Source: Gallionellaceae bacterium (GTDB lineage: Bacteria > Pseudomonadota > Gammaproteobacteria > Burkholderiales > Gallionellaceae). From it: 64,000 bases of DNA. Both the position numbers and the translations under genes were made by a program. The stretch's first letter is position 1, and every line of letters begins with the position of its first letter. The DNA is taken from NCBI GenBank assembly GCA_038925365.1, contig JBCKTV010000002.1:5713-69712 (forward strand). The letters run 5' to 3'. Under the pieces are notes generated by a model. It searched no databases. It worked only from the letters and a program-made list of their open reading frames with translations, and was not told where the DNA came from. Of the stretch, positions 1,896 to 43,193 are shown piece by piece.

Positions 1896-1939
1896 GTTTT
1901 TATTTGTTAAGCAAGAAAAAATAAACGCATCCCCCCTCT

Positions 1940-2665
1940 ATGCCCCACACCCTGTTTATCTCAGACCTGCACCTGAGTGAAAATGAGCCGCACATCACCC
2001 AACTGCTGCTGAATTTCACCCGTGACACTGCGCCCAAAGCCGACGCGCTCTATATCCTTGGCGACCTATTTGAATACTGGGCTGGCGATGATGATCGCTC
2101 CACACCTTTCCACCAGAAAATCATAGTCGCGATAGCCCAACTAAGCCAACAAGGTACGCCTATTTACATCATGCACGGCAACCGCGATTTTCTGATGGAC
2201 GAACAACTGGCAACAGAGTGTCACGCCATTTTGCTGCCAGACCCCACACTAATCGACTTATACGGCACCCCCACCCTGCTAACTCACGGCGATGCGCTGT
2301 GCACCCACGACGTGCAGTACCAGGCGTTTAGACTACAGGTACGGCAATCTGCATGGCGCAACAACTTCCTTGCGCAACCTTTAACGAAACGCAAAGCGGA
2401 AATCGAACAGCTACGCAAAATGAGTGAAGAGCAAAAGCAGACAAAGGCAATGGAGATGATGGATGTGAACCTAACTGCCGTTGCTGACCTATTCCGCAAC
2501 CATCAATACCCACGCATGATCCACGGCCATACCCACCGACAAAAACATCATCTGCACGACGTCGATGGCAAAACTTGTGATCGCTGGGTGTTGGGAGATT
2601 GGCACACAACAGGGAATGCTTTGCACTGTGATGCTGCGGGCTGCCGCTTTATAACGATAAAGTAA
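1940..2665 (+). CDS. lpxH: UDP-2,3-diacylglucosamine hydrolase
   Basis: Calcineurin-like phosphoesterase motifs ISDLHL, GDLFEYW and HGNRDFL. The 241-aa length is typical of LpxH. Confidence 0.9.
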   Translation: MPHTLFISDLHLSENEPHITQLLLNFTRDTAPKADALYILGDLFEYWAGDDDRSTPFHQKIIVAIAQLSQQGTPIYIMHGNRDFLMDEQLATECHAILLPDPTLIDLYGTPTLLTHGDALCTHDVQYQAFRLQVRQSAWRNNFLAQPLTKRKAEIEQLRKMSEEQKQTKAMEMMDVNLTAVADLFRNHQYPRMIHGHTHRQKHHLHDVDGKTCDRWVLGDWHTTGNALHCDAAGCRFITIK

Positions 2666-2699
2666 TAAAGGAAGTCTGGTTTCTATTGGTGTTTCGAGT

Positions 2700-2747
2700 A
2701 AATATTCAATATAATCAATATGTTGCGCTTAAACGCCTATCTAAATC
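2700..2747 (+). repeat. AT-rich intergenic element with IHF-consensus core, copy A
   Basis: aaatattcaatatAATCAAtatgTTG followed by ...cctatctaaatc. Lies between the convergent genes lpxH and the nuclease gene. Confidence 0.8.
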
Positions 2748-2858
2748 TGACAGCTTGCTAGTGAAGTGTTAAAGACTATTAAGCATTTATGAGTTTGCAG
2801 TTTATAGTTGATTCTGCATCAATCAAAAAACAAGCAAAAACTTCTAATGCAGCTTGAC

Positions 2859-3491
2859 CTAATCAGTCACACACAAGCTCTCGCACGGCACACCGTCACC
2901 ATCCCCATCCAGTGATTTAACACCACAGTGCAGAAAATAAATTTTCGCTTCCTCGCAAGTTTTCATCTTACTGCACAAATATTTTTTGCCGCAAGCTGGG
3001 TTTACTGCCTTGCTTGGGTTTGTTATTGAAGGATGTGACTTGCGCCACTGTTGCGGCGAAATTGGCTGCGCGGATTGTGCCCACAAACCCCGCCGTGATT
3101 GTTTCGCCTGCTTGTTCAATTCAACGTAATGTTTGTTGGGATAAAAATTTGAATCTCCCCAAGCCATGCCCTCGCGCACCTGCTCCTCATTCACACTCTG
3201 CCCATCAATGCTGATCTCGGCGATCATGCGGCCATAGCTATCCACGGCCTTACTGTTGATCCGCACCTGCTTTTTCAACACCCTATCCACCAGCGCCTGG
3301 CGTGACTCCTTGCCGAACACCTGCGCCGATTCAGGTGCATCGATATAGGCCAGACGCACCTTGATCTTCTTGCCATCGCGCAACACCATCACGGTATCGC
3401 CATCCATCACAGCAATGACCTTGGCGTAAAATTCATCAGCATAAGCAAGATTGAAAGAAGCACTGACTAGCAACAGTAAAATCAGACGCAT
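2859..3491 (-). CDS. secreted thermonuclease (SNase-like) with C-terminal excalibur calcium-binding domain
   Basis: Signal peptide, SNase-like core (VIAVMDGDTV...RLAYIDAPE) and C-terminal DGDGDGVPCE excalibur motif. Confidence 0.8.
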   Translation of the reverse strand: MRLILLLLVSASFNLAYADEFYAKVIAVMDGDTVMVLRDGKKIKVRLAYIDAPESAQVFGKESRQALVDRVLKKQVRINSKAVDSYGRMIAEISIDGQSVNEEQVREGMAWGDSNFYPNKHYVELNKQAKQSRRGLWAQSAQPISPQQWRKSHPSITNPSKAVNPACGKKYLCSKMKTCEEAKIYFLHCGVKSLDGDGDGVPCESLCVTD

Positions 3492-3615
3492 TCAATCCTC
3501 CTTGCTTGTCAACAAACGTAGTTTATTTTCGGTCACCAAGTAGGTTCCCTTGCTATTGATTACATCAGTCAAATAACTGGATAACGACAAGCCCCTGCTC
3601 GTCTATGGCAATGAT

Positions 3616-4128
3616 TTACATCATGCTTTTGATAAAAGCCAAACACAGCAGTGCATACCCTGCCGCCAGCAGGTCATCAAACATGACACCAAATCCACCA
3701 TGCATATTTTGATCGAAATATTTGATAGGTTGTGGTTTGACGATGTCGAAGAAACGGAATAGTACGAAGGCCAGCAGTTGCCAATAGAGCCAGTTGGGAC
3801 CATCCGGTGTAAAGAACAGTACCAGCATGAAGGCCACTATCTCATCCCACACGATGCCGCCGTGATCATCCACCCCCAATGCATGGCTGGTTTTGTCGCA
3901 TATCCACACGCCTATGATGAATGCCAGAATCAGGAACAACAGAAACAAGTAGTCATTCATCAGGGGGGCGAGTAGCCAATACAGGGGGAAGGCAACTAAG
4001 GTGCCTGCGGTGCCTGGCGCTTTTGGAACGAGGCCGCTACCAAAGCCCAAAGCAAAGAAATGTGCCGGGTGGCTGAACAGCAATTTTAAATCGGGTTTCA
4101 GATAAAATTTTTCATTTGAAATGGTCAT
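3616..4128 (-). CDS. pgpA: phosphatidylglycerophosphatase A
   Basis: FFALGFGSGLVPKAPGTAGTL motif, polytopic membrane protein, overlaps the end of thiL as in many proteobacteria. Confidence 0.85.
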   Translation of the reverse strand: MTISNEKFYLKPDLKLLFSHPAHFFALGFGSGLVPKAPGTAGTLVAFPLYWLLAPLMNDYLFLLFLILAFIIGVWICDKTSHALGVDDHGGIVWDEIVAFMLVLFFTPDGPNWLYWQLLAFVLFRFFDIVKPQPIKYFDQNMHGGFGVMFDDLLAAGYALLCLAFIKSMM

Positions 4129-5065
4129 AGCCGGTTTCCTCTAGCGTCATTACACTGCCATCTGCTGCAACTATTTTACAAGCTGAACCTGCGACTATGT
4201 TGCCGATACAAGTTAGCGGCAAAGCAAGTTGCGCGGATAATTTTTTGATCTCCGCATGGCGGAGGGCTGATGCGGTGAAACATAATTCATAATCATCACC
4301 GCCTGCCAACACACATTGTTTTCCCAATGTTTGCCCAAGATACGGTTTGAGGTGTGTTGAAACGGGTAAGGCAGAAAACTGTATCTCGGCAGCGACTTTA
4401 GAGCGATCCAGTATATGTCCAAGATCGGCGAGCAAGCCATCGGAAATATCTATCGCACTATGCGCAATGCCGCACAAGGCGAGACCCAGGACAACACGAG
4501 GTACAGGACGGTGCAAGGCGGTTGCAGTGGCATGGAAACTAGCATCATCCAGTTTTAGTTTTCCCTGAAGGTGCGCCAGCGCCAACGCGGCATCGCCAAG
4601 CTTGCCCGACACCCATATTTCATCACCCACCTGTGCACCGTCTCGCCGCAATGCTTTTCCCTGCGGTACTTCGCCCATGATGGTGACACACAAATTGAGC
4701 GGGCCGCGTGTGGTATCGCCGCCGATCAACTCGACTTGATGCTCATTCGCCAGCGCAAAAAACCCGGCACTGAAGCGCTCCAGCCATGCCTCATCTACAC
4801 TGGGTAATGACAGTGCCAAAGTTGCCCAGCGTGGCTGCGCACCCATTGCTGCCATATCGGAAAGATTGACTGCCAGCACCTTGTGGCCAAGTAGATAGGG
4901 ATCGGCATCAGCAAAGAAATGCGTGCCGCTGACCAGCATGTCGGTGGAGATTGCCAGCTCCATGCCGCTGGCGACACGCACCAGCGCTGCATCATCACCC
5001 ACGCCTAAAACTGCACTGGGCGTGGCACGGGTAAAGTAACGCTGGATTAGGCTGAATTCGGACAA
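4112..5065 (-). CDS. thiL: thiamine-monophosphate kinase
   Basis: N-terminus MSEFSLIQRYF, GDDAALV and STDMLVSGTHF motifs of the AIR-synthase-like ThiL family. Confidence 0.9.
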   Translation of the reverse strand: MSEFSLIQRYFTRATPSAVLGVGDDAALVRVASGMELAISTDMLVSGTHFFADADPYLLGHKVLAVNLSDMAAMGAQPRWATLALSLPSVDEAWLERFSAGFFALANEHQVELIGGDTTRGPLNLCVTIMGEVPQGKALRRDGAQVGDEIWVSGKLGDAALALAHLQGKLKLDDASFHATATALHRPVPRVVLGLALCGIAHSAIDISDGLLADLGHILDRSKVAAEIQFSALPVSTHLKPYLGQTLGKQCVLAGGDDYELCFTASALRHAEIKKLSAQLALPLTCIGNIVAGSACKIVAADGSVMTLEETGYDHFK

Positions 5066-5102
5066 ATTTTTGGATTCCTGGGGAAAAGCACTTATACGCA
5101 GA

Positions 5103-5246
5103 TTAGAGAGTTACTGTGTCACGACACTTTTAAATCCCCCCTAGCCCCCCTTTTACAAAGTGGGGAACACTCTAACTGCTAAGAGTCTAACTGGTTCCCC
5201 ACTTTCCCAAAGGGGGGCTAGGGGGGAGAGCTAGCGAGGGGGCGTG
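5103..5246. repeat. C/G-tract palindromic REP/MITE-like element, copy 2
   Basis: Left flank tagagagttactgtgtcacgacactttt, then aaatcccccctagccccccttttacaaagtggggaa, a loop, then ttccccactttcccaaaggggggctaggggggag. Lies between nusB and thiL. Confidence 0.85.
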
Positions 5247-5248
5247 CT

Positions 5249-5719
5249 TTACTTTGCGCTCACTTCAATCGCACGCACCTGAACTGCCAGTTTATCCAGT
5301 ACGCCATTCACGAATTTATGCCCATCGGTAGAACCAAAGGTTTTTGTGAGTTCAACGGCTTCATTGATCACCACACGATAGGGAACTTCGGGGTGCCGCG
5401 ATAATTCGAACGCGCCCAGCATCAACACCGAAAACTCGATAGGGCTGAGTGTGTTCATATCGCGATCAAGATGCGGCGTGAGCACTGCAACCAGCGCCTG
5501 GTTATGTTCAACCACGCCTCTCAGCAATTGACTAAACAGCTCTGCATCGTAACGACCCAGACTTTTTTCCGCACGCGTTGTTTTTTCAATTTCCAGATGA
5601 TCGCCACCACTCATGCGCCACTGGTAAATGGCTTGCAATGCCAATTCTCGCGCACGGTGCCGCGCACTTTTGGCAGGGGACTTTACTGCTTGAACTTTTA
5701 TTCCAGCGCTCTCGGTCAT
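5249..5719 (-). CDS. nusB: transcription antitermination factor NusB
   Basis: [16 protein letters not shown]-terminal motif. Conserved ribH-nusB-thiL order. Confidence 0.9.
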
Positions 5720-6168
5720 TCCAGCGCTTTCAGCAGATTGGCCATTTCTATGGCGACCAATGCGGCTTCTGCACCTTTGACTATCATGCGTTCTTCCGCT
5801 TGTTCGTCTGTTTCGGTGGTAAGAATAGCGTTGGCGATAGGCACGCCGTTATCCAGTTGTACATCACTTATGCAGCGAGCCGATTCGTTAGACACCACTT
5901 CAAAATGAAAAGTGTCGCCGCGTATCACCGCACCCAGTGCGATCAGCGCATCAAATTTGCCGCTACCCGCCATCTGTTGCAACACCAGCGGAATTTCCAG
6001 CGCACCCGGCACTGTTACCAGCATGATGTCGTCGTCCGCAACGCCTTGTTGCGTGAGCTTTGAGCGGCACGCACCCAGCAAACCTTCGCAAATATCAGGA
6101 TTAAAACGGCTTTGCACAATGCCGATACGCAAGCCTTTACCGTTCAGATTTTTTTCCAGTTCTTTCAT
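5716..6168 (-). CDS. ribH: 6,7-dimethyl-8-ribityllumazine synthase
   Basis: [18 protein letters not shown] and HFEVV motifs. 150 aa. Confidence 0.92.
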
Positions 6169-6191
6169 ATTTTAACCATCTCTTTCATTTT

Positions 6192-7289
6192 TTATCCTTC
6201 GCTATGTACATATCCTACGACTTCCAAACCAAAACCGGCCATGCTGGGCAACTTGCGCGGGGTGCCTATCAGTCGCATTTTACCGACATTCAGATCACGC
6301 AGTATTTGGGCGCCGATGCCGTAACTGCGAGGATCCCAGCGTGCTGCATGGTGGGTCTCCGGCGTAGCCGCTGCACGTGCAAGCAAATCCTGCGATGTTT
6401 CATTGTGATGCAACATCACCATCACGCCGACAGCTGACTGTTTTATTTTGAGTAGCGCATCGTGCACGCTGGTTGAATTTGGATAGCTCGCTTGCTCGAG
6501 GAAATCTAGCACCGACAGTGGCTCATGCACGCGCACCAGTGTTTCGACATTAGCTTGGATCTTGCCTTTAACCAGCGCCAGATGGGTGCATTGCGTAGTC
6601 TTGTCCACATAGGTACGTAGCTCCAGCTCGCCATAAGCGGTCTGCACATTACGCGTGGCAACACACTCCACCAGCTTTTCTGTTTGACTGCGATGCTCAA
6701 TCAGGTCGGCTATGGTACCGATTTTTAGATTGTGTGTTTTTGCATAAATAATCAGATCAGGCAGACGCGCCATCTCGCCGTCTTCTTTCAATATTTCGCA
6801 AATAACCGAAGCCGGTGTCAACCCGGCAAGTGCTGCCAAATCACAACCCGCTTCGGTGTGACCGGCACGCACCAGCACGCCGCCGTTTTTTGCACGTAAA
6901 GGGAAGATGTGGCCGGGCATCACAATATCGGAAGGTTTTGCATTTTTATCCGCCGCCACCAGCACGGTGCGTGCACGGTCGGCAGCCGAAATGCCGGTGG
7001 TCACTCCGGTTGATGCTTCTATCGACAGGGTAAAGTTGGTTGCCAGTGCTAAACCGTTTTCACGCACCATCAGCGGCAGGTCAATCTGCTTGCAATGCGC
7101 TTCGGTCAAGGTTAGGCAAATCAGGCCACGGCCATGTTTGGCCATGAAATTTATTTTTTCGGCAGTGACAAATTCGGCGGCAAACACCAGATCGCCTTCG
7201 TTCTCGCGATCTTCCTCGTCTATCAGCACCACCATGCGCCCCTGGCGCATTTCTTCAATTATTTCCAATACTGGTGCTATGTCTGTCAT
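6192..7289 (-). CDS. ribBA: bifunctional 3,4-dihydroxy-2-butanone-4-phosphate synthase / GTP cyclohydrolase II-like protein
   Basis: DHBP synthase motifs DEEDRENEGDL and GHTEA, followed by a C-terminal GCHII-like domain. 365 aa. Confidence 0.9.
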   Translation of the reverse strand: MTDIAPVLEIIEEMRQGRMVVLIDEEDRENEGDLVFAAEFVTAEKINFMAKHGRGLICLTLTEAHCKQIDLPLMVRENGLALATNFTLSIEASTGVTTGISAADRARTVLVAADKNAKPSDIVMPGHIFPLRAKNGGVLVRAGHTEAGCDLAALAGLTPASVICEILKEDGEMARLPDLIIYAKTHNLKIGTIADLIEHRSQTEKLVECVATRNVQTAYGELELRTYVDKTTQCTHLALVKGKIQANVETLVRVHEPLSVLDFLEQASYPNSTSVHDALLKIKQSAVGVMVMLHHNETSQDLLARAAATPETHHAARWDPRSYGIGAQILRDLNVGKMRLIGTPRKLPSMAGFGLEVVGYVHSEG

Positions 7290-7442
7290 TTCTTGCTTAC
7301 CTTTTATCTTTCAACTATTTTTATTAATACTGCAATTTTACCATTAGCAATTCAAGTGACATCATGCCCGATTAACTATTCGCTCTAAACCCTCTCTCTG
7401 ACAGAGGTGGAACATAGCGAGGGGACCTAGCAGCCTATCAAT

Positions 7443-7490
7443 CTTAGACGGCATGCTTATCATAACATATTGATTATATTGAATATAATT
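7443..7490 (-). repeat. AT-rich intergenic element with IHF-consensus core, copy B
   Basis: The reverse complement reads attatattcaatatAATCAAtatgTTAtgataagcatgccgtctaag. Lies between the histidine kinase gene and ribBA. Confidence 0.8.
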
Positions 7491-7537
7491 ACAGGTGGCT
7501 GGTGCATTAAGGTGAGTAGACCATGAGATAACTGCCT

Positions 7538-10033
<2,496 letters not shown>

Positions 10034-10248
10034 ATACAGCAGCGCAAATACCGTGGTGATCAGGCAAATATAGACCAGCAGGCGATGCGCGGCGTGTTGG
10101 CGCTGGTCTGGCTCCGCAACGCTGGGCGTGAACCAGTTGACCCACTGGTCGAGCCGGTTGAGAGTGATTTGCAGGGGTCGGTTAATTGCAGTTCTCCGAA
10201 TCAGTTTATTTGAATTGAAAGTGTGACATAAACAGCCAAGGCAAAGAT

Positions 10249-10310
10249 AAATTATTCAATATAATCAATATGTTACTGTTTTATTTAATCATATGACTAT
10301 ACCTATCTAG
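10249..10310 (+). repeat. AT-rich intergenic element with IHF-consensus core, copy C
   Basis: aaattattcaatatAATCAAtatgTTA ... acctatctag. Confidence 0.8.
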
Positions 10311-10333
10311 GAGTGCATCTAAAAACATTAAGC

Positions 10334-12127
10334 TTAATTCCGCTCCAACAGATTGCGCACCCATTTTATAACCCAGGAAACCATGCCCAAAATAAACAGC
10401 AAAGTCCATTGCACCGTATTCGTCCACATTGGCATTTCTTTACGCCAAGGCAAGCCTTTGCGGTAACGACTATCATCCACCCAGCGCCAGATTTTGAACA
10501 GATAGGGTTCGTTTAGGGGCCAGATGCGGCAATAGTTTGTATGTACGCCGCTGGCGTCGAGGATGCTATTCACGGCGCGGCGCGCGGCTTCGTTGGCGCC
10601 TTCCATAGTGGCTAAGTCGGTGTTGGTTTTGACGTAGTCACCTGCCAAAAACAAGTTGTGGATGTGGGTATAGGCGTTGGGACGTAGGGTCCAGGAGTTG
10701 ACCAGATTGACCATTAACGGTTGGGTGTTGATTTTTTTGGTGGTGGCCGGATCATGTGGCGGTTGAAATTGAATGTCGGGGTCGAGAAACCAGGAGTGTA
10801 AATTTTCGTCCGTGAGAGGTTCTTGACCATCAACATTCAGGCTGCGTTTTAATTGCGCCCAAATTTCTTCACCAATTTCCTGTAGCGTACATTCCTTAGC
10901 GGATTTATTGTAGAGGATGCCGGGTTTGTCCCAATCGGAAATGTCGACGGATATGATGCCTTGTACAGTGCCGTCACCATAGCCGTTGAGATTGATGTGT
11001 TGCCAGAATTGTGTTTGCGAGATGGAAGTGAGCGCCCAAGGTGCGTCGACATAGATAATGTGCCCATGCACCAAGGGTACGTCTTTTTTCAAATAGAACT
11101 GCGCTCCATTCATCCAATCGACGTAGATAGGTGTTTGCTGTGGACAGGCTTTAGTTTCCGGGTATAAATCCGGGTAGCGACCTAGTAGCTGTATGTTGGC
11201 TAAGCACGGATCGGCTAGTAACATGTCTGCATTGATAAGTGCAGCCATGCGTTCAACAGGGACGGCCATCAGATAATAGTCGGCAGTGATTTGTTCTATT
11301 TTTCCATTGCGAACGATGCTGACGCCGGTGATATTTTCACCCACACAATGGATGGCGCTGACAGAGGCATTTAAGTGGTAGCGCACGCCTTTGGATTCGA
11401 GATAATGGAGCCAAGGGTCGATCCACACATCGTTGGTCGGGCCATTGAGTACAAGGTCGCTGCTTTTACCGGGCTCCAACATGCTGAACAACAGCAGCAC
11501 TAGGATGTGGCCACCGGTGCGGGTACTGGCGTGCTGTGCTTGAGCCGCTACCAAGGTGCGCGTTAAGCCATTGCCGAGCAATTTTTGATAAGCCTCCGAG
11601 CGCGTTGCAGCGCCGATGAATTCCCACCAACCGACTTGCTCGTATTCGGCTAAGCGACGGGTGCTGCAACTGGTAATAATTTGCCACACGCGCTCCGCAA
11701 AATATTCGAACTCGTCGTCGGGAATACCGGTGTCGGTGTCAAACAAGCCTTTCAAGATGAGCAGCAATTCCGCCAGGTTTTTGGGAAAACCAGCGAGGAT
11801 GACAATGGGTTTTTTGTCGAAACGCGCCATGGCAATGCGCGTGGTACCCACCAGATTGTCGAAGACCGTTTTGCCGCCCGCCACCGGGATTTCTTTCATG
11901 GTAGCGGTGATGTGTCGGTAAAAAGCCGGGAAGAAGCGGAACCCATGTTCGCCGGGGAGCGGGAGACGACCATCGGTCGCAGAGTCGGGAACCGGCATGC
12001 TGCGTGCCTTGCCACCGGGGATGCTTAAACCCTCAAACACTTCAACTTGAAAGCCGCGCCGGATTAATTCGTGCGCGGCGCTCATGCCGGAAATCCCACC
12101 ACCTAGAATAACGACTTTTTTGCTCAT
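10334..12127 (-). CDS. FAD-dependent oxidoreductase (amine oxidase / phytoene desaturase superfamily) with C-terminal TM helix
   Basis: Dinucleotide-binding motif KKVVILGGGISGMSAAHEL. I moved the start to the ATG at 12127, which is preceded by AAGAGGAG; the ORF-track start at 12223 has no such support. Confidence 0.7.
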   Translation of the reverse strand: MSKKVVILGGGISGMSAAHELIRRGFQVEVFEGLSIPGGKARSMPVPDSATDGRLPLPGEHGFRFFPAFYRHITATMKEIPVAGGKTVFDNLVGTTRIAMARFDKKPIVILAGFPKNLAELLLILKGLFDTDTGIPDDEFEYFAERVWQIITSCSTRRLAEYEQVGWWEFIGAATRSEAYQKLLGNGLTRTLVAAQAQHASTRTGGHILVLLLFSMLEPGKSSDLVLNGPTNDVWIDPWLHYLESKGVRYHLNASVSAIHCVGENITGVSIVRNGKIEQITADYYLMAVPVERMAALINADMLLADPCLANIQLLGRYPDLYPETKACPQQTPIYVDWMNGAQFYLKKDVPLVHGHIIYVDAPWALTSISQTQFWQHINLNGYGDGTVQGIISVDISDWDKPGILYNKSAKECTLQEIGEEIWAQLKRSLNVDGQEPLTDENLHSWFLDPDIQFQPPHDPATTKKINTQPLMVNLVNSWTLRPNAYTHIHNLFLAGDYVKTNTDLATMEGANEAARRAVNSILDASGVHTNYCRIWPLNEPYLFKIWRWVDDSRYRKGLPWRKEMPMWTNTVQWTLLFILGMVSWVIKWVRNLLERN

Positions 12128-20048: not shown

Positions 20049-20057
20049 AGGACCCCT

Positions 20058-20182
20058 CTAAAAATCCAAACTCCGTCGCGATACTGCGTTACTCATGCAA
20101 TTTTATCGCTTACATATAATACATATGCTGCGCGTTAAAATTACATTCGCGCCTTGTCTCGCTTAGGATTTTGGATTTTTAG
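20058..20182. repeat. nested imperfect palindrome filling the fbpA-fbpB intergenic region
   Basis: Outer arms ctaaaaatccaaa (20058-20070) and tttggatttttag (20170-20182). Inner arms around catataatacatatg. Confidence 0.7.
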
Positions 20183-21937
20183 ATGCGCCCTAATTTAAAC
20201 CCTTCTTCCATAAAGACCGCAAAAGTGTCGTTTGGCACTTTTGCGTTTTTTCGTTCCTCTTTGCTGAACGTCTGGCGTTTATTGGGCGGCTGGAATTTAC
20301 TAGACGGCTGGCGACTAGCTGCCTTTGCTATCGCCCTGCTTGTCGTCGTTCCGCTTATGGTGGTGCTGAGTTCCTTGCTTTCCCCAGAACAGGAAATCTG
20401 GCGTCACCTCGTCGAACACGTACTACCAGGGCTGCTGTCCAACACCCTCAAAATGACGCTAGGCGTAGCCGTCGGTGTAATTTTGCTGGGTGTGAGTCTC
20501 GCCTGGTTGACGGCAGTATGCGAATTCCCCGGCAGGAAATTTTTCTCCTGGGCGCTGCTACTGCCACTGGCCGTGCCCGCCTATGTCACTGCTTTCGTCT
20601 TCATCTCCTGGCTGGATTTCACCGGGCCAGTGCAGACCCTGCTACGAGCAAGCTTCGGTAGCAGCGCGTGGTTTCCCAGCATCCGTTCCGGTGGCGGCGT
20701 GGTGCTGGTGATGACGCTAGCACTCTACCCCTATGTCTATCTGCTCGCCCGCAACGCCTTTCTCACCCAGGGACGCAGCGTCATGGAAGCCGCTCAATCT
20801 CTCGGCTACAGCCGCAGCAAGGGATTTTTTCGGGTGGCGTTGCCGATGGCTAGGCCATGGATTATGGGTGGCTTGCTGCTGGCCTTGATGGAAACCCTTT
20901 CAGATTTTGGCACCGTTGCAGTATTCAACTATGACACCTTCACCACCGCCATCTACAAGACCTGGTTCGGCATGTTTTCCCTGAGTGGCGCTTCACAGCT
21001 TGCTTCGATTCTGGTTTTACTGGTATTCGTCTTGATTTTGTTGGAACAGGCTTCCCGTTCGCGGCTGCGTTACACCCAGTCGGGTAAACACTCCCAGTCT
21101 GAACGCATTAAGCTGGGCGGATGGCGCGGCTTGCTTGCCGCCGGTTTCGCCACAACGGTACTGCTGACCGCATTTGCGCTACCCGTCGGCCAGCTAGTAG
21201 TGTGGGCGGCCAGCGTATTCACTCAGGATTTTGACCAACGCTATCTGAGTTTTCTGTGGCATTCCCTGTCTCTGGGCGCTATCGCTGCCGTCCTTACCGT
21301 GATGTGCGCCTTGATCCTGGCCTATGCCCAGCGCCGCCACACCGATGCATGGACGCGATTCGCAGTACGTATCGCCTGCCTTGGCTACGCCGTGCCAGGA
21401 CCGGTGCTGGCGGTGGGCATTATCATTCCACTGGCGTGGCTGGATAACCAACTCATACACCTCAGCAAAACTCTGTTCGACCACAACCCCGGCCTGTTGC
21501 TGCAAGGAACACTGCTAGTGATGATCCCCGCCTACCTTACCCGTTTCCTCGCAGTCGGCTATAGTCCCGTGGAAACCGCCATGCAGCGCATTACGCGTAA
21601 TCTCGACGAGGCCTCCCGCACTTTCGGCGTTACTGGCCTGCAAATGTTGCGCCGTGTGCATCTGCCCATATTGCGCGGCGGTTTGTTTACGGCTGCGGCA
21701 CTGGTGTTCGTTGATGTAATGAAAGAAATGCCTATCACCCTGATGACCCGTCCCTTCGGTTGGGACACCCTGGCGGTGCGTATTTTCGAAATGACCTCAG
21801 AAGGGGAATGGGAGCGTGCAGCCCTGCCCGCCGTGGCGTTGGTACTCGCCGGATTGCTACCGATCGCACTACTGGTCAGATATACGGAAGCTGTCAGTAA
21901 AAAAACTGTCGCTGATCAAACCCATCTGACAGTTTGA
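20183..21937 (+). CDS. fbpB: iron(III) ABC transporter permease (two fused permease domains)
   Basis: About 12 TM segments and a duplicated BPD-transporter core. The start codon is uncertain, because the ATG at 20183 sits at the edge of the palindrome. Confidence 0.85.
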   Translation: MRPNLNPSSIKTAKVSFGTFAFFRSSLLNVWRLLGGWNLLDGWRLAAFAIALLVVVPLMVVLSSLLSPEQEIWRHLVEHVLPGLLSNTLKMTLGVAVGVILLGVSLAWLTAVCEFPGRKFFSWALLLPLAVPAYVTAFVFISWLDFTGPVQTLLRASFGSSAWFPSIRSGGGVVLVMTLALYPYVYLLARNAFLTQGRSVMEAAQSLGYSRSKGFFRVALPMARPWIMGGLLLALMETLSDFGTVAVFNYDTFTTAIYKTWFGMFSLSGASQLASILVLLVFVLILLEQASRSRLRYTQSGKHSQSERIKLGGWRGLLAAGFATTVLLTAFALPVGQLVVWAASVFTQDFDQRYLSFLWHSLSLGAIAAVLTVMCALILAYAQRRHTDAWTRFAVRIACLGYAVPGPVLAVGIIIPLAWLDNQLIHLSKTLFDHNPGLLLQGTLLVMIPAYLTRFLAVGYSPVETAMQRITRNLDEASRTFGVTGLQMLRRVHLPILRGGLFTAAALVFVDVMKEMPITLMTRPFGWDTLAVRIFEMTSEGEWERAALPAVALVLAGLLPIALLVRYTEAVSKKTVADQTHLTV

Positions 21938-38493: not shown

Positions 38494-38650
38494 CTTCACA
38501 CTTTGAAAAGGTGGACGAAGGGGGAGAGCGAAGCGAGAGGGCGTAATTTTCGTACTACAGCTATTTTCTGTCACCGCCATAAATCCCCCCTAGCCCCCCT
38601 TTTTTAAAGTGGGGAATAATGATGAAAGCCAAGTACCTGAGTAGTTACGG
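38494..38650. repeat. C/G-tract palindromic REP/MITE-like element, copy 4 (one degenerate unit plus one intact unit)
   Basis: Degenerate unit cttcacactttgaaaaggtggacgaagggggagagcgaagcgag, then aaatcccccctagccccccttttttaaagtggggaataatgatgaaag. Confidence 0.8.
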
Positions 38651-38655
38651 CGATC

Positions 38656-39405
38656 TTAAAACAACGTAAACAACTGGTTAGATAAGCCCAGTACGCTGAC
38701 TATCGCTATGCCGCCGCCCATCCAGCGCTTGAATATTTTGTCGTTTTTAACAATGCTGTGATGCGCCTTGAGTCCGATAAAATGTCCGATTGCGGCAATC
38801 GGCAACAGGCTGAGCGCGGTCAGAAAATGCAGCTCAACTTTGAGCATCATAAAGGTGGACATTTTGATCGCCACCAATACAAACCACAACACGAACAGCG
38901 TGTCGCGCAATTGCTCTCTGCGTACTTTGCGCATGAATACTGCCACCATCAATGGCGCGCCAGTCAATGAAGTGCCGGCAATATATCCGCCTAGCACCAG
39001 CAACACTTTATCCACCCAGTTGTTATGACTCTGGATCACAAAGTTCATAAACCACATCACGCCGTAAAACAAGGTGATCGTATAAATAAAAATATTCAGC
39101 CAAAGGGTGGGCATATTAATCAGACCCAATACGCCCACTATCGCCGGTGGCACGATATAAATTGATGCCCGACGTAAATAAGTCCAATCTACATTATTCA
39201 ATTGCGTAAAAAGGGTCAGACTAGAAAAAAACAATAAATGCACGCTGATGATGGGCAACCAGTAGAGCGGCTGGTTGCTGATAAACAGCAGAAGCGGCAA
39301 GCCTAAAGCAGCACCGCCAAAGCCCAAGCCTGTGCGCACAAAGCCGGTCCATACAAACAACAATGCAATGGCGATACTTTGATAGAGACTGAATTCGGCC
39401 AGCAT
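38656..39405 (-). CDS. TauE/SafE (TSUP) family anion permease
   Basis: Seven or eight TM helices with GFGGAALGLPLL and GGYIAGTSLTGAP motifs. Start set at MLAEF, 1 nt after the DUF4381 stop. Confidence 0.8.
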   Translation of the reverse strand: MLAEFSLYQSIAIALLFVWTGFVRTGLGFGGAALGLPLLLFISNQPLYWLPIISVHLLFFSSLTLFTQLNNVDWTYLRRASIYIVPPAIVGVLGLINMPTLWLNIFIYTITLFYGVMWFMNFVIQSHNNWVDKVLLVLGGYIAGTSLTGAPLMVAVFMRKVRREQLRDTLFVLWFVLVAIKMSTFMMLKVELHFLTALSLLPIAAIGHFIGLKAHHSIVKNDKIFKRWMGGGIAIVSVLGLSNQLFTLF

Positions 39406-39406
39406 T

Positions 39407-39889
39407 TTATATTCCAATTTTTTTAAATGCAGACTTGCGACTGTAGCGCCGCAACCAATACTCAGTCTGGGCAAATAAGTCAGCCAGTTTTTCTGCACTT
39501 ATCTCGGCATTGTGTTGATACAAAAATGTATCGAGCGTCTGCAAAAAATCGTGCCAGCGCGTATGATCCTGCGGCTTAAGTTGCTCAGGAATTTTATTTG
39601 CACTCAGTCTTTTTACACCCAGCCCATGACGCAATTCTAACGCAAGCAGCAGCACCGTTTCCTGCGGCGTGTTTTCCTTGTCATGCAGTTGTTTGTGCAA
39701 TGTACGCATTCGACGGATTGCACGATAGGCTGGTAATTTGTATTTCCACAACACAAACAAAACCACAGCAGCTATCACCAAACCAGTGATCAGCAGAGCT
39801 ATCCATAGCCATCCATCTGAAGCAGCCAGTACCGGTGCTGCGGGTTCAATAATATCGGCGAGGCCGCTATTCGTGTCACTCATAATCAT
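39407..39889 (-). CDS. DUF4381 domain protein (MoxR/Bat operon component)
   Basis: Single TM helix (WLWIALLITGLVIAAVVLFVLW) followed by KYKLPAYRAIRRM, typical of DUF4381. Confidence 0.7.
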   Translation of the reverse strand: MIMSDTNSGLADIIEPAAPVLAASDGWLWIALLITGLVIAAVVLFVLWKYKLPAYRAIRRMRTLHKQLHDKENTPQETVLLLALELRHGLGVKRLSANKIPEQLKPQDHTRWHDFLQTLDTFLYQHNAEISAEKLADLFAQTEYWLRRYSRKSAFKKIGI

Positions 39890-39913
39890 TTACCCTCAAG
39901 AAAAATTTATATT
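39867..39913. repeat. 47-bp direct repeat, left copy, flanking the Fic cassette
   Basis: ctattcgtgtcactcataatcatttaccctcaagaaaaatttatatt, identical to 41089-41135 except for one base. Confidence 0.9.
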
Positions 39914-39932
39914 AATCATCTTCAGTAGCCTG

Positions 39933-40517
39933 CTAGCTTCTTACGAAAGCAAGCAATGGCTGACAATCGCCGTGGTCGGCGGCGCTCAAAACAGTGATGT
40001 AGCGATCTCGGGTTTTGCTAGCATCGCTAAGGCTTTTACTACCCCACGTAAAACGAGCCTGCCCTAACTTTTTCACCAACAAGTCTGCGATCATCCGCGC
40101 ATGCCGACCATTACCGTTAGGGAATGGATGAATGAGCACTAGGCGATGATGAAAGCGCGTGGCAATTTCGTCAGGTGGGTAAGTTGCATGATCTATTTGA
40201 TAGCGCACATCATTCAGTAAGTCGCGTAGACGCACGCCGATGTGATGACTATCTACACCGATATTTTTGTCCGTCTGGCGGAAGGTGCCTGCCCAACTCC
40301 AAGTCTCACCAAACATTTTTTCATGCAGTCGTCGCACAAAAGTTTCGTCGAGAATGTCTTTTCGTTGCTTACTCGCCCAAGCTTCACCTTGCAAAATATT
40401 GAGCTGCTCCCATTCGTTGAGTTCGCCCTGTGTGGTGATATGCTTAGCAATCAAACAGCCAAGTTCGTCCGCATCTAGTGGAGTTGCACCTGGCGGGTAA
40501 TTGAAATTTATCGCCAT
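39933..40517 (-). CDS. Fic family protein (mobile mystery protein B type)
   Basis: Fic motif HPFPNGNGRHARM. 194 aa. Overlaps the upstream HTH gene. Confidence 0.85.
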   Translation of the reverse strand: MAINFNYPPGATPLDADELGCLIAKHITTQGELNEWEQLNILQGEAWASKQRKDILDETFVRRLHEKMFGETWSWAGTFRQTDKNIGVDSHHIGVRLRDLLNDVRYQIDHATYPPDEIATRFHHRLVLIHPFPNGNGRHARMIADLLVKKLGQARFTWGSKSLSDASKTRDRYITVLSAADHGDCQPLLAFVRS

Positions 40518-40969
40518 AAATTTCGTCGCGATCCATTAAGCAAGCTTGCAGACAGCTCCTGTGCTTGAGCATCCGTAGCCTCAGTTGAGGTTGCTTGCGC
40601 TTCCAGCGCCATGGTGTGCGCCACATTTTTCATGCGCTCACTGGCAACTTTATCGGCTTGCTTTGCTAAAGTGTTTGCTAGCGTCTGCTTTGGTAGCAAA
40701 GCATATTGCAATTCACAGCCCAGCGCTTCTGCCGCGCGGCGCAGGCTTCCTAAGGTGATAGTGTCCTCAGCCTCTGAGGTTTCGAGACGGCTTAGGGATG
40801 AAGGTACAATGCCGAGCCGCTTTGCGAGATAAGCAGCAGGCATTCCAAGAGCTTCACGTATCGCTTTAATCCAGCCGGAAGATGGACGGGCGGGCAACTC
40901 AGCCGAACGCCAGCGAGCGAGAGCGTTGTCCAGCTGGCGTTGCTTAAGGTTATTGAAGCGCGATTTCAT
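40508..40969 (-). CDS. XRE-type HTH protein (mobile mystery protein A type)
   Basis: HTH segment AAYLAKRLGIVPSSLSRLE. Pairing with the downstream Fic gene is as described for the TIGRFAM mobile mystery A/B pair. Confidence 0.75.
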   Translation of the reverse strand: MKSRFNNLKQRQLDNALARWRSAELPARPSSGWIKAIREALGMPAAYLAKRLGIVPSSLSRLETSEAEDTITLGSLRRAAEALGCELQYALLPKQTLANTLAKQADKVASERMKNVAHTMALEAQATSTEATDAQAQELSASLLNGSRRNLWR

Positions 40970-40978
40970 AATTAATTA

Positions 40979-41053
40979 TGCGTTATAGCTCATTATTTTA
41001 ATATCATATATTGCACTGTAATGCATTATATAAATAATAACAATTGCATTATA
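40979..41053 (-). promoter_or_regulatory. candidate promoter/operator of the Fic cassette (repeated TGCATTATA)
   Basis: tgcgttata (40979), tgcattata (41022) and tgcattata (41045). On the coding strand these read TATAATGCA, so each contains a TATAAT. Confidence 0.35.
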
Positions 41054-41088
41054 GTGCCATATGCAATATCTAAATCTGCACGCGAACC

Positions 41089-41135
41089 CTATTCGTGTCA
41101 CTCATAACCATTTACCCTCAAGAAAAATTTATATT
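41089..41135. repeat. 47-bp direct repeat, right copy, flanking the Fic cassette
   Basis: ctattcgtgtcactcataaccatttaccctcaagaaaaatttatatt. It contains the DUF58 stop codon. Confidence 0.9.
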
Positions 41136-42084
41136 CGTCGGCTTCCGTGCTGCAACGATGCAAGCGCACCCCGATGCGCTCAAACAACACTTTCTGTTTT
41201 GCATGCAGTGCCTCTGCTTGCCGATTGAACAAGCTGCGCACACTCTGGCTGCCAGTGTCCAGCCAGCGCAGTTTGCCGCTCGCCACATCAAAAAAACGCA
41301 TCATGCCAACATTGGGCAGTGTCTCTTCCGCACTATCCATTACCTGCAAGGCGAGCACATCATGGTGCGATGCCAAACGCATCAACACAGGTAAATCCTG
41401 CTCATGTAATTGTGCAAAATCGCTGATCAGCACCAGTCTGGAGCCGCGCGGCAACTGTGCATCCAGCTCGCGCAGCATCTCGGCAAACGTGCACGCTTGT
41501 GCTGCGGGTTCATTCTGCAATGGCGGGCAAGGAGCGATAGCGGCGCGCACCAGCCGCGTTGCACCCTCCTCGCCGTTCAAACACGGCAAGCTAAAGCCGC
41601 CTGATTGCCACAGGGTGCCGCCGATGCAGGTATTGCTCGGCATTGCGGCAAAAGCAAAAATTGCAGCAATGCGTGCAGCGAGGGTGACTTTGAGTTGCTT
41701 GCGCGTACCGAAACGCATGCTAGCACCGCGATCCACCACGATATGCAAGGGCGGCTGATGTTCTTCACGGTACACCTTTAGATAGGGTTTTCCTGTACGA
41801 GCAGTGGTGCGCCAGTCCATGTCGCGCATTTCGTCACCCGCTTGATAGGGTCGAACCTCTTCAAAATCCAATCCGCGTCCTAGATAAATAGAGCGAAAAT
41901 TTCCCGCTTGCCGGTAGTGCACATCTCTGGGCTGCAACTGCGCAAGATTCATCGCCTGCACCTGTTGAATGATGCCGTCGAGATCGGCGTCGCTTAATAG
42001 CGGCGCATGCAGTTGCGCTTGCTGTATGGCAGCTTGCGCGGTAAACAGGCGCGATAGCCAAGTACGAAGATTGCTTAACATCAT
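41098..42084 (-). CDS. DUF58 domain protein (MoxR operon partner)
   Basis: VRPYQAGDEMRDMDWRTTARTGKPYLKVY motif typical of DUF58. Confidence 0.85.
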   Translation of the reverse strand: MMLSNLRTWLSRLFTAQAAIQQAQLHAPLLSDADLDGIIQQVQAMNLAQLQPRDVHYRQAGNFRSIYLGRGLDFEEVRPYQAGDEMRDMDWRTTARTGKPYLKVYREEHQPPLHIVVDRGASMRFGTRKQLKVTLAARIAAIFAFAAMPSNTCIGGTLWQSGGFSLPCLNGEEGATRLVRAAIAPCPPLQNEPAAQACTFAEMLRELDAQLPRGSRLVLISDFAQLHEQDLPVLMRLASHHDVLALQVMDSAEETLPNVGMMRFFDVASGKLRWLDTGSQSVRSLFNRQAEALHAKQKVLFERIGVRLHRCSTEADEYKFFLRVNGYE

Positions 42085-42230: not shown

Positions 42231-43193
42231 TTAAGGTATCGGCACGACTTCAAGCAAGGCCCTCACCATATCGTCACGCGAAACTTTTTCCATGCGTGCG
42301 GTGAAACTTGGAATAATGCGATGACGCAAACAATCCGGTGCCACCGCCAGAATATCATCCGGCAAAACATGATCACGTCCCTGCATATAGGCAGTTGCAG
42401 CGGCAGCATGCACGATCGCCAAAGAGCCGCGTGGACTCGCCCCTACCTCGATAAAACCGGCAAACTGCGGCAGCCATTTATCGATCTGCCGCGTCGCGCC
42501 GACCAGTGCCACCACATATTGTTCCAGTGCCGGTACAAGATGAATACGCTTCACTTCCTCGCGTGCTGCCAGCACCGTCGCGACATCCAGCACCGCACCT
42601 TGCGGCTTGGGCGCGGTGTTAGTCAACCGCTCACGGTCGCGTTGCAAAATCAGCAACTCTTCCTCGGGGCTGGGATAATCCAGCATCACGTGCAGCAAGA
42701 ATCTGTCCATCTGCGCTTCCGGCAAGGGATAGGTTCCCGCCTGATCCAGCGGGTTTTGCGTCGCCATCACCATAAACAATTCCGGCAAAGGTCGCGTCAC
42801 ACCACCCACCGTAATCTGCTTCTCCTGCATCGCCTCCAGCAAGGCGGCCTGCACTTTAGCAGGGGCGCGGTTGATTTCGTCCGCCAGAATAATTTCATGA
42901 AACAGCGGCCCCTCGGCAAAGCTGAAACTCGCCGCCTGCGGATTGTAGATTTCCGTGCCGGTCAAATCACCGGGCAGCAAATCTGGCGTAAATTGGATGC
43001 GGCTGAAACTGCAATGCACGGCGGATGCCAGTGCCTTAACTGCGGTGGTTTTGGCCAGTCCCGGCAAACCTTCCACCAAAATATGCCCGCCGGTTAACAG
43101 GCTCACCACCAACTTGTCGAGCAAGTCTGCCTGGCCTACGATGGTGTTTTCCAGATATTTTCGTAAGGCAATGATACTGGGTTGATTGTTCAT
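42231..43193 (-). CDS. moxR: MoxR-family AAA+ ATPase
   Basis: Walker A GLPGLAKT, Walker B ILADEINRA, 320 aa. Confidence 0.92.
   Translation of the reverse strand: MNNQPSIIALRKYLENTIVGQADLLDKLVVSLLTGGHILVEGLPGLAKTTAVKALASAVHCSFSRIQFTPDLLPGDLTGTEIYNPQAASFSFAEGPLFHEIILADEINRAPAKVQAALLEAMQEKQITVGGVTRPLPELFMVMATQNPLDQAGTYPLPEAQMDRFLLHVMLDYPSPEEELLILQRDRERLTNTAPKPQGAVLDVATVLAAREEVKRIHLVPALEQYVVALVGATRQIDKWLPQFAGFIEVGASPRGSLAIVHAAAATAYMQGRDHVLPDDILAVAPDCLRHRIIPSFTARMEKVSRDDMVRALLEVVPIP

Follow-up and report, generated by a model that had tools for sequence, protein, structure and literature searches.

Certain bacterial restriction-modification units are found between two copies of a stretch that is single in related genomes, an arrangement described as insertion with long target duplication (Nobusato et al. 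2000, Gene 259:99; Furuta, Abe and Kobayashi 2010, PMC2853133). In these cases the repeats are 46-423 bp long and often overlap the 3' ends of genes, the mechanism is unknown, and a tentative connection has been made to DNA breakage by the restriction enzyme (PMC2853133). The class was defined by an empty site, a single-copy target, a duplication of >30 bp, an insert of <20 kb and the lack of a mobility gene (PMC2853133), and a 2013 review listed the route for restriction-modification systems only (PMC3874152). Here we describe an insertion of this kind with a different cargo. It lies in a 64-kb stretch of a Gallionellaceae contig (JBCKTV010000002.1, positions 5,713 to 69,712; the whole of this stretch is called the window), where a two-gene cassette encoding mobile mystery proteins A and B, an XRE-type helix-turn-helix (HTH) protein and a Fic-domain protein, sits between the DUF58 and DUF4381 genes of a moxR operon. 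How toxin-antitoxin and small defence modules that lack mobility genes come to move has long been a puzzle, which the name "mobile mystery protein" reflects, and the long target duplications around restriction-modification genes have been unexplained since 2000. Among open-access papers we found none that reports a long target duplication around toxin-antitoxin cassettes or that studies the movement of the mobile mystery pair.

In the window, the cassette was inserted where DUF58 and DUF4381 overlap, and the target was duplicated. A 47-nt direct repeat, the two copies of which differ at a single site (A/C at 39885/41107; 98% identity), brackets an insert of 1175 nt (39914-41088), and the coordinates, size and mismatch given by an earlier reading of the letters alone (the sequence-only reading) were all reproduced. 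The 47-mer occurs exactly twice in the window, and no such pair arose in 100 shuffles. A repeat search lengthened the pair to 60 nt at 90% identity, and by eye the homology extends over ~64 nt (41089-41152 versus 39867-39932), of which the inner 17-19 nt are far more diverged. Both host genes are intact because the junction is duplicated, the upstream copy providing the stop codon of DUF58 and the downstream copy the ribosome-binding site and start codon of DUF4381; on this point, too, the sequence-only reading was right. It had further proposed a comparison with genomes in which the junction is uninterrupted, and such genomes exist among the relatives that we compared, which are metagenome-assembled genomes or metagenome contigs; by its DUF58 homologues, the organism of the window belongs with Gallionellaceae-like betaproteobacteria. 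L001 (DUF58 92% identical), L003 (80%) and L088 have the order moxR-DUF58-DUF4381-TauE-batA with a single overlapping junction and no cassette, and in L086 the junction is likewise an empty, single-copy site. Both 47-mers of the window align to the one junction of L001, with 4 and 5 differences. A metagenome scan with DUF4381 yielded no more than two loci, which are distant (~60% identity) and lack the cassette.

The cassette itself has no defined ends. Homology among cassettes at different loci starts 25-30 nt inside the left boundary seen in the window and stops exactly at the Fic stop codon, and the left host-to-insert breakpoint of the window falls at a short microhomology (AT.GGG). The insert lacks terminal inverted repeats, its 80-nt ends sharing inverted exact matches of 5 nt at most, and the window contains no tRNA gene. 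Profile searches found no integrase or transposase in the insert, as the sequence-only reading had stated; the search for integrases covered the insert but not the remainder of the window. The attC-type imperfect palindrome that an integron cassette should carry downstream of its cargo is missing, and there is no room for one because the 19 nt that separate the Fic stop from the 47-mer are homologous over their whole length to the end of DUF58. No terminator was predicted after the Fic gene, and the base composition of the insert does not stand out (GC 0.48-0.52 versus 0.45-0.58 in the flanks).

A possible origin of these fragments is visible in other genomes. In L027, L034 and L047 (~1900-10600) the A/B pair lies inside a type 1 BREX (bacteriophage exclusion) locus, between brxC and the methyltransferase gene pglX, and L021, L035 and L043 hold partial versions of this brxC-cassette-pglX context. 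Cassettes at many unrelated sites carry 24-99 codons of the brxC 3' end directly upstream of the leader, and relocated cassettes carry 30-55 nt of the pglX 5' end after the Fic stop; in the window, the first 19 nt of the insert appear to be a stub of the former kind. The ~70 cassette loci represent ~55 distinct genomic contexts. Together, these remnants suggest that this betaproteobacterial subfamily of cassettes dispersed from BREX islands.

The same footprint is seen at other targets and around another cargo. In searches of identical geometry, long flanking direct repeats (~40-140 nt) with a score of at least 25 were found at 6 of 61 other cassettes, whereas 3 of 208 control positions, shifted from the real ones, reached this score (Fisher p=0.005); the control hits are paralogues or repetitive extragenic palindromic (REP) elements. 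In six other loci, inserts that consist of the A/B pair only are bracketed by direct repeats of host sequence, which measure 42 nt in L004, 48 nt in both L038 and L057, 137 nt in L014 (at the 3' end of hipA), 139 nt in L046 and 134-235 nt in L058. In the eight loci checked for it, the upstream copy is always the 3' end of a gene that is read in the same direction as the cassette (8/8). The repeats at different loci are unrelated and share no common core sequence. In L004 (5283-7771) one gene's 3' end occurs three times, separating the Fic cassette from a ParE/ribbon-helix-helix (RHH) cassette, and each cassette has its own duplication of this gene end, of 42-68 nt for Fic and ~166 nt for ParE/RHH. 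The expectation that other A/B loci would be flanked by long duplications thus held for some of them, and the view that the footprint is peculiar to this gene pair did not, given the ParE/RHH cassette of L004 and the restriction-modification genes (PMC2853133).

Several further observations concern the repeats at other loci. The duplication lengths form two groups, 42-48 nt (L004, L038, L057 and the window) and 134-139 nt (L014, L046, L058), in what are few cases. Larger inserts are bracketed by direct repeats in L010 (3366-6882; cassette with a NERD-UvrD helicase gene; 248 nt) and in L042 (3867-7781; cassette with a HipA-like gene and an NmrA-family gene; 111 nt). In L024 (5119-8188) and L068 (5191-8289) the cassette lies in ~3-kb islets between a tRNA-Arg gene and its partial copy, one islet with an HNH gene and the other with a DDE transposase gene, and these belong to a different, att-type class. 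The hipA genes shared by L014 and L049 are 74% identical, too distant to tell which repeat copy is foreign.

The insertion in the window is old. L083, an independent metagenome contig from a different sample, carries the cassette at the same DUF58/DUF4381 junction, and the two share the right joint, the Fic stop TAG followed by CAGRCTAYTGAAGATGAT, beyond which each follows the allele of its own lineage. Between the window and L083, the fraction of differing third codon positions is 0.24 for A and 0.20 for Fic, about equal to that of the flanking genes (moxR 0.22, DUF58 0.27, DUF4381 0.26, batA 0.25), so the cassette has co-diverged with its flanks. The two 47-mers of the window differ from each other at 1 site, whereas orthologous copies differ at 4 (window versus L001) and 7 (window versus L083), and both window copies share states seen in no relative. 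Since the window copies are more alike than orthologous copies, they have probably been homogenised by gene conversion, or the duplication was re-formed in this lineage, in either case while both copies were under constraint, and their likeness is not the mark of a recent event. Divergence is confined to the inner part of the downstream copy, which is non-functional. This copy is a mosaic: its inner 18 nt are an allele of the L083/L002 type and the remainder matches the window's own upstream copy, and positions 39914-39932 hold the allele signature GAAGATGAT (E-D-D), common to L083 and L002, with an in-frame TAA. A search of the 100-nt spacer of L083 for a decayed upstream copy of the junction scored only marginally against shuffles (p ~0.03-0.05) and was not relied on. 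The site is therefore not the clean footprint of the insertion event that the sequence-only reading had thought possible, because L083 shares the insertion, the cassette is as diverged as its flanks and the repeat has been homogenised.

The cargo consists of the XRE-HTH and Fic genes and nothing else, as had been read from the sequence, and both products score above the curated TIGR cutoffs (Table 1). A precedes B, and the genes overlap by 10 nt. In protein B the Fic motif HPFPNGNGRHAR stands at residue 130 and has N at the usual D/E position of HxFx(D/E)GNGRxxR; the Pfam Fic domain scores 45.5 bits, the nearest solved structures are the AMPylases FICD and NmFic, and the protein matches the PADLOC defence candidate PDC-S04 with 72 bits. 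A regular-expression search found no inhibitory motif (S/T)xxxE(G/N) in A or B. From this anatomy the pair has the layout of a Fic-type addiction module, in which mobile mystery protein A is presumed to be antitoxin and autorepressor. The family is common on plasmids, B being found on 256 plasmid records including those of Agrobacterium, Rhizobium, Coxiella and Vibrio, and the pair is for this reason probably addictive. On Ti/Ri-type plasmids of Agrobacterium and Rhizobium in PLSDB, the B match also overlaps an annotated DUF3991/toprim gene (e.g. NZ_CP115846.1 23893-24474). In the AT-rich leader, the operator-like palindromes are at 41044-41058 (GGCACTATAATGCAA) and 41011-41025 (TGCATTACAGTGCAA), and the sigma-70-like site runs from 41022 to 40995; the motif that the sequence-only reading had noticed there, TGCATTATA, is indeed present twice on the plus strand. 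Exact look-ups of the window's DUF4381 and Fic proteins returned no record with the same sequence.

Table 1. Features of the cassette and its host operon in the window
Feature	Position	Strand	Remarks
DUF4381 gene (host)	39407-39889	-	GAGGG ribosome-binding site and start codon kept; intact via the downstream repeat copy
Downstream 47-nt copy	39867-39913	-	DUF4381 ribosome-binding site GAGGG, start codon and first 8 codons
Diverged inner part of downstream copy	39914-39932	-	CAGGCTACTGAAGATGATT; spans the entire gap between the Fic stop and the 47-mer
Mobile mystery protein B, Fic domain, 194 aa	39933-40517	-	TIGR02613 mob_myst_B, 266.7 bits (cutoff 124.4)
Mobile mystery protein A, XRE-type HTH, 153 aa	40508-40969	-	TIGR02612 mob_myst_A, 158.8 bits (cutoff 122.6)
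AT-rich leader	40970-41069	-	two operator-like imperfect palindromes and one sigma-70-like site; conserved among cassettes at unrelated sites
First 19 nt of insert	41070-41088	-	GGTTCGCGTGCAGATTTAG; aligns with the last codons and stop of brxC that precede the leader in BREX-embedded and relocated copies
Upstream 47-nt copy	41089-41135	-	last 12 DUF58 codons and stop (41098-41100), then a second DUF4381 start, non-functional; homology continues, weaker, to ~41152
DUF58 gene (host)	41098-42084	-	moxR operon; stop TGA at 41098-41100, kept intact via the upstream repeat copy
moxR	42231-43193	-	

The operon around the insertion differs in one respect from what had been read from the sequence. Downstream of DUF4381 lie TauE, batA, batB and batD, all on the minus strand, so that of the proposed interruption of a moxR-DUF58-DUF4381-batA operon the interruption stands and the gene order does not, TauE being native between DUF4381 and batA in this clade (L001, L002, L003, L087, L088). 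We had considered TauE as a second insert and rejected this because it is native in these five relatives. The longest TauE open reading frame (38656-39498) overlaps the end of DUF4381 by 92 nt. The real start in the window probably lies further downstream, as judged from the TauE proteins of relatives (243-250 aa), which begin just past the DUF4381 stop.

The DUF58/DUF4381 junction is a hotspot of rearrangement. Among close relatives (homologues P0002-P0060), the final 10-12 residues of DUF58 vary greatly and fall into four types, including a frameshift variant ending in ..FESVWL. The sequence-only reading had conceded that two copies of the 47-mer in cassette-free relatives would speak against it, and this was found in part: the cassette-free L002 (~2190-2260) and L087 (~1190-1260) carry tandem junction copies, which are diverged and partial, look like loss scars or separate rearrangements and are not the 47-mer itself. 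A miniature inverted-repeat transposable element (MITE) of ~135-140 nt with the ends GGCACCTCTAAAAATYCAAA occurs in the window (20051-20189) and in L016 (6538-6672, with a further end match at 4914-4926). The same element lies between DUF58 and DUF4381 in L085 (~3361-3500), a truncated copy at the DUF58 stop supplies the end of the reading frame in L083 (2222-2234), and an apparent end fragment of it is found at the joint of L002, which may be the loss scar of an L083-like state. The window also contains 11 copies of a REP-like palindrome, CCCCTTTTTNAAAGTGGGGAA (1765, 1849, 5147, 5195, 30005, 30051, 38596, 42142, 42189, 54322 and 54369), mostly as inverted pairs in intergenic spacers, and such copies flank the DUF58-to-TauE block on both sides. 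A 39-nt repeat at 38580 and 42126 was considered as part of the insertion and rejected as a member of this 11-copy family.

As to how the cassette arrived, we lean towards the reading that a DNA fragment of 1.16-1.18 kb, made up of the HTH-Fic pair, its leader and a brxC-like stub, was inserted with a target duplication of ~64 nt and that its joints were formed by host recombination, not by a protein that the cassette encodes. The likeliest route would be homology-assisted illegitimate recombination of incoming DNA, in which one joint is guided by homology to the end of the neighbouring gene and the other forms at a microhomology; for near-identical repeat pairs, a staggered break with fill-in could be the alternative. 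The insertion would have survived because, with the duplication, DUF58 retains its stop and DUF4381 its ribosome-binding site and start, and because the pair is probably addictive. The outer 47 nt would since have been kept near-identical by gene conversion and functional constraint, and the direct repeats could allow RecA to remove the cassette and allow it to enter again at the empty sites of relatives. Host recombination is favoured over a dedicated enzyme because the fragment ends are arbitrary, the window copy is a mosaic and the repeat copies of L046 look allelic. In L046 the copies are 85% identical and encode the same peptide with the same stop, and their coding differences are distributed over the three codon positions as 0, 3 and 13, a skew with an estimated probability of ~0.004 if 46% of differences were at third positions. 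Since a decaying fossil copy would not show this pattern, one copy of L046 seems to have arrived as the allele of another genome, already joined to the cassette.

Several points weigh against this reading. About 85-90% of cassette loci have no recognisable flanking repeat, and the bias towards third positions, clear in L046 alone, is weaker in L058 and L054 and is not shown by L014, L042 or L031, so there may be more than one insertion route. The 19-nt "brxC stub" could be a conserved left end of the cassette that merely overlaps brxC in the BREX loci. The left joint of the window is unlike that of L083, which obliges us to assume later remodelling and makes the original extent of the duplication uncertain. 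Homology-facilitated illegitimate recombination, as published, usually deletes recipient DNA and does not duplicate it, and we infer the enzymology from the anatomy of the junctions alone.

The nearest competitor is Campbell-type cycling. RecA would excise a circle between the repeats, which would re-integrate by a single crossover at the empty junctions of relatives, and the repeat would be a carried copy of the target, as in phages that supply a substitute gene end. The mosaic downstream copy of the window and the allelic look of the L046 copies fit such a cycle, and 47 nt exceeds the usually quoted minimum for RecA pairing. However, cycling can neither make the first duplication nor reach new targets such as the ~55 contexts now occupied; the co-divergence of cassette and flanks between the window and L083 needs no recent lateral move, and the left joints of the two differ. 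We thus consider it rather unlikely. More improbable is a dedicated transposition, in which a transposase or nuclease acting in trans makes a cut with a long stagger and the 47 nt are a true target-site duplication. The similar sizes of 42, 47, 48 and 48 nt here and of 46, 46 and 47 bp in restriction-modification units (PMC2853133 Table 2) speak for it, as does the uniform orientation of the upstream genes (8/8). Yet the termini are neither conserved nor inverted and lie tens to hundreds of nucleotides apart in different copies, the duplications range from 42 to >200 nt, the L046 copies are allelic instead of identical at birth, and an unrelated ParDE cargo left the same footprint.

The remaining explanations fare worse still. 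A small tandem duplication could have come first, separating the overlapping DUF58 and DUF4381 genes by a neutral spacer into which the cassette landed later, and the diverged partial tandem junction copies of the cassette-free L002 and L087, which have nothing between them, speak for this. We give it little credence, as the insert occupies the exact joint of the two copies both in the window and in at least six loci with unrelated targets, most relatives have a single junction copy, and the MITE end at the joint of L002 makes it resemble the scar of an L083-like state. It is very doubtful that the repeat represents the attL and attR sites of a tyrosine or serine integrase encoded elsewhere, the cassette then being a non-autonomous element resembling a cis-mobilizable element (CIME): integrases often target the 3' ends of genes, and the islets of L024 and L068 are bounded by partial tRNA-Arg copies, but there is no shared core between loci, the window has no tRNA gene, the insert has no integrase and the ends are variable. 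An assembly artefact, that is, a chimeric join of metagenome contigs, might be suspected in an environmental assembly compared with relatives of the same kind. We regard its probability as negligible because the independent L083 contig, of other origin and from another sample, agrees with the window in gene order, in the junction that holds the cassette and in the right joint, and because neither the reading frames nor the ribosome-binding site are disrupted.

Compared with known systems, the cargo resembles FicTA, VbhTA, Phd-Doc, PDC-S04 and SoFic in that two overlapping genes encode first a small protein that binds DNA and then a Fic protein with an intact catalytic loop, and in that the A/B family is frequent on plasmids; it differs in that A and B lack the (S/T)xxxE(G/N) motif and in the N that stands in the catalytic loop at the usual D/E position. 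The minimal mobile elements of Neisseria are also small cassettes without mobility genes between conserved genes and are spread by transformation and homologous recombination in the flanks, but they are not accompanied by a target duplication. Phage 21 and e14 integrate into icd and bring a substitute gene end with them. Here, too, the element brings a diverged 3' end of its target, leaves the gene intact and, as in L046, introduces mostly synonymous differences; those elements, however, encode an integrase that acts at a fixed core, whereas the insertions described here have no integrase, no common core and many targets. Homology-facilitated or double illegitimate recombination is known from natural transformation in Acinetobacter, Streptococcus pneumoniae and Pseudomonas stutzeri. 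It is likewise mediated by the host without a recombinase and combines a homologous anchor and a microhomology joint with arbitrary foreign ends; the difference, counted above against our reading, is that the published events mostly delete or replace recipient DNA. A related, short-patch form of illegitimate recombination has been described (bioRxiv 10.1101/2023.11.22.568220). The cassette does not look like a DDE transposon or MITE, lacking terminal inverted repeats and being flanked by duplications that vary from 42 to 235 nt, nor does it look like an integrase islet, with no integrase in the insert, no tRNA gene in the window and unrelated repeats between loci.

The closest match is the insertion of restriction-modification units. 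The window has the empty site, the single-copy target, a 47-nt duplication (>30 bp), a 1175-nt insert and neither a mobility gene nor a tRNA or att site, and departs from the published definition (PMC2853133) in the cargo, which is TIGR02612/TIGR02613 in place of restriction and modification genes. The two groups are alike in their long and variable duplications (46-423 bp there, 42-235 nt here) of sequences that are single-copy in relatives, in the lack of a mobility gene, in the overlap with gene 3' ends and in an addictive or defence cargo. They differ in that the cargo here is HTH-Fic (ParDE in L004), in that some repeat pairs are allelic and in that remnants of an earlier BREX context are attached. 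Because the same footprint is found with a cargo that does not cut DNA, the explanation by restriction-enzyme cutting does not apply here. Tentatively, and with clearly less confidence than for the locus itself, we would extend our reading to addictive two-gene modules in general, which may colonise chromosomes without a recombinase: a broken-out fragment, in this case of a BREX island, would be joined by homology and microhomology with a long target duplication, and addiction would fix these rare events. This could explain both the mobile mystery pair and the restriction-modification duplications, with the 46-48 nt size perhaps hinting at a molecular ruler. Because of the duplication, a tightly overlapping operon can take up an insertion without damage, the inserted units are fragments with arbitrary ends that can be traced to BREX islands, and the allelic repeat copies of at least one locus point to host homologous and illegitimate recombination, so that the comparative data narrow the likely mechanism and make it testable. 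In summary, the insertion in the window belongs to a known class of rearrangement and departs from the described cases in its cargo.

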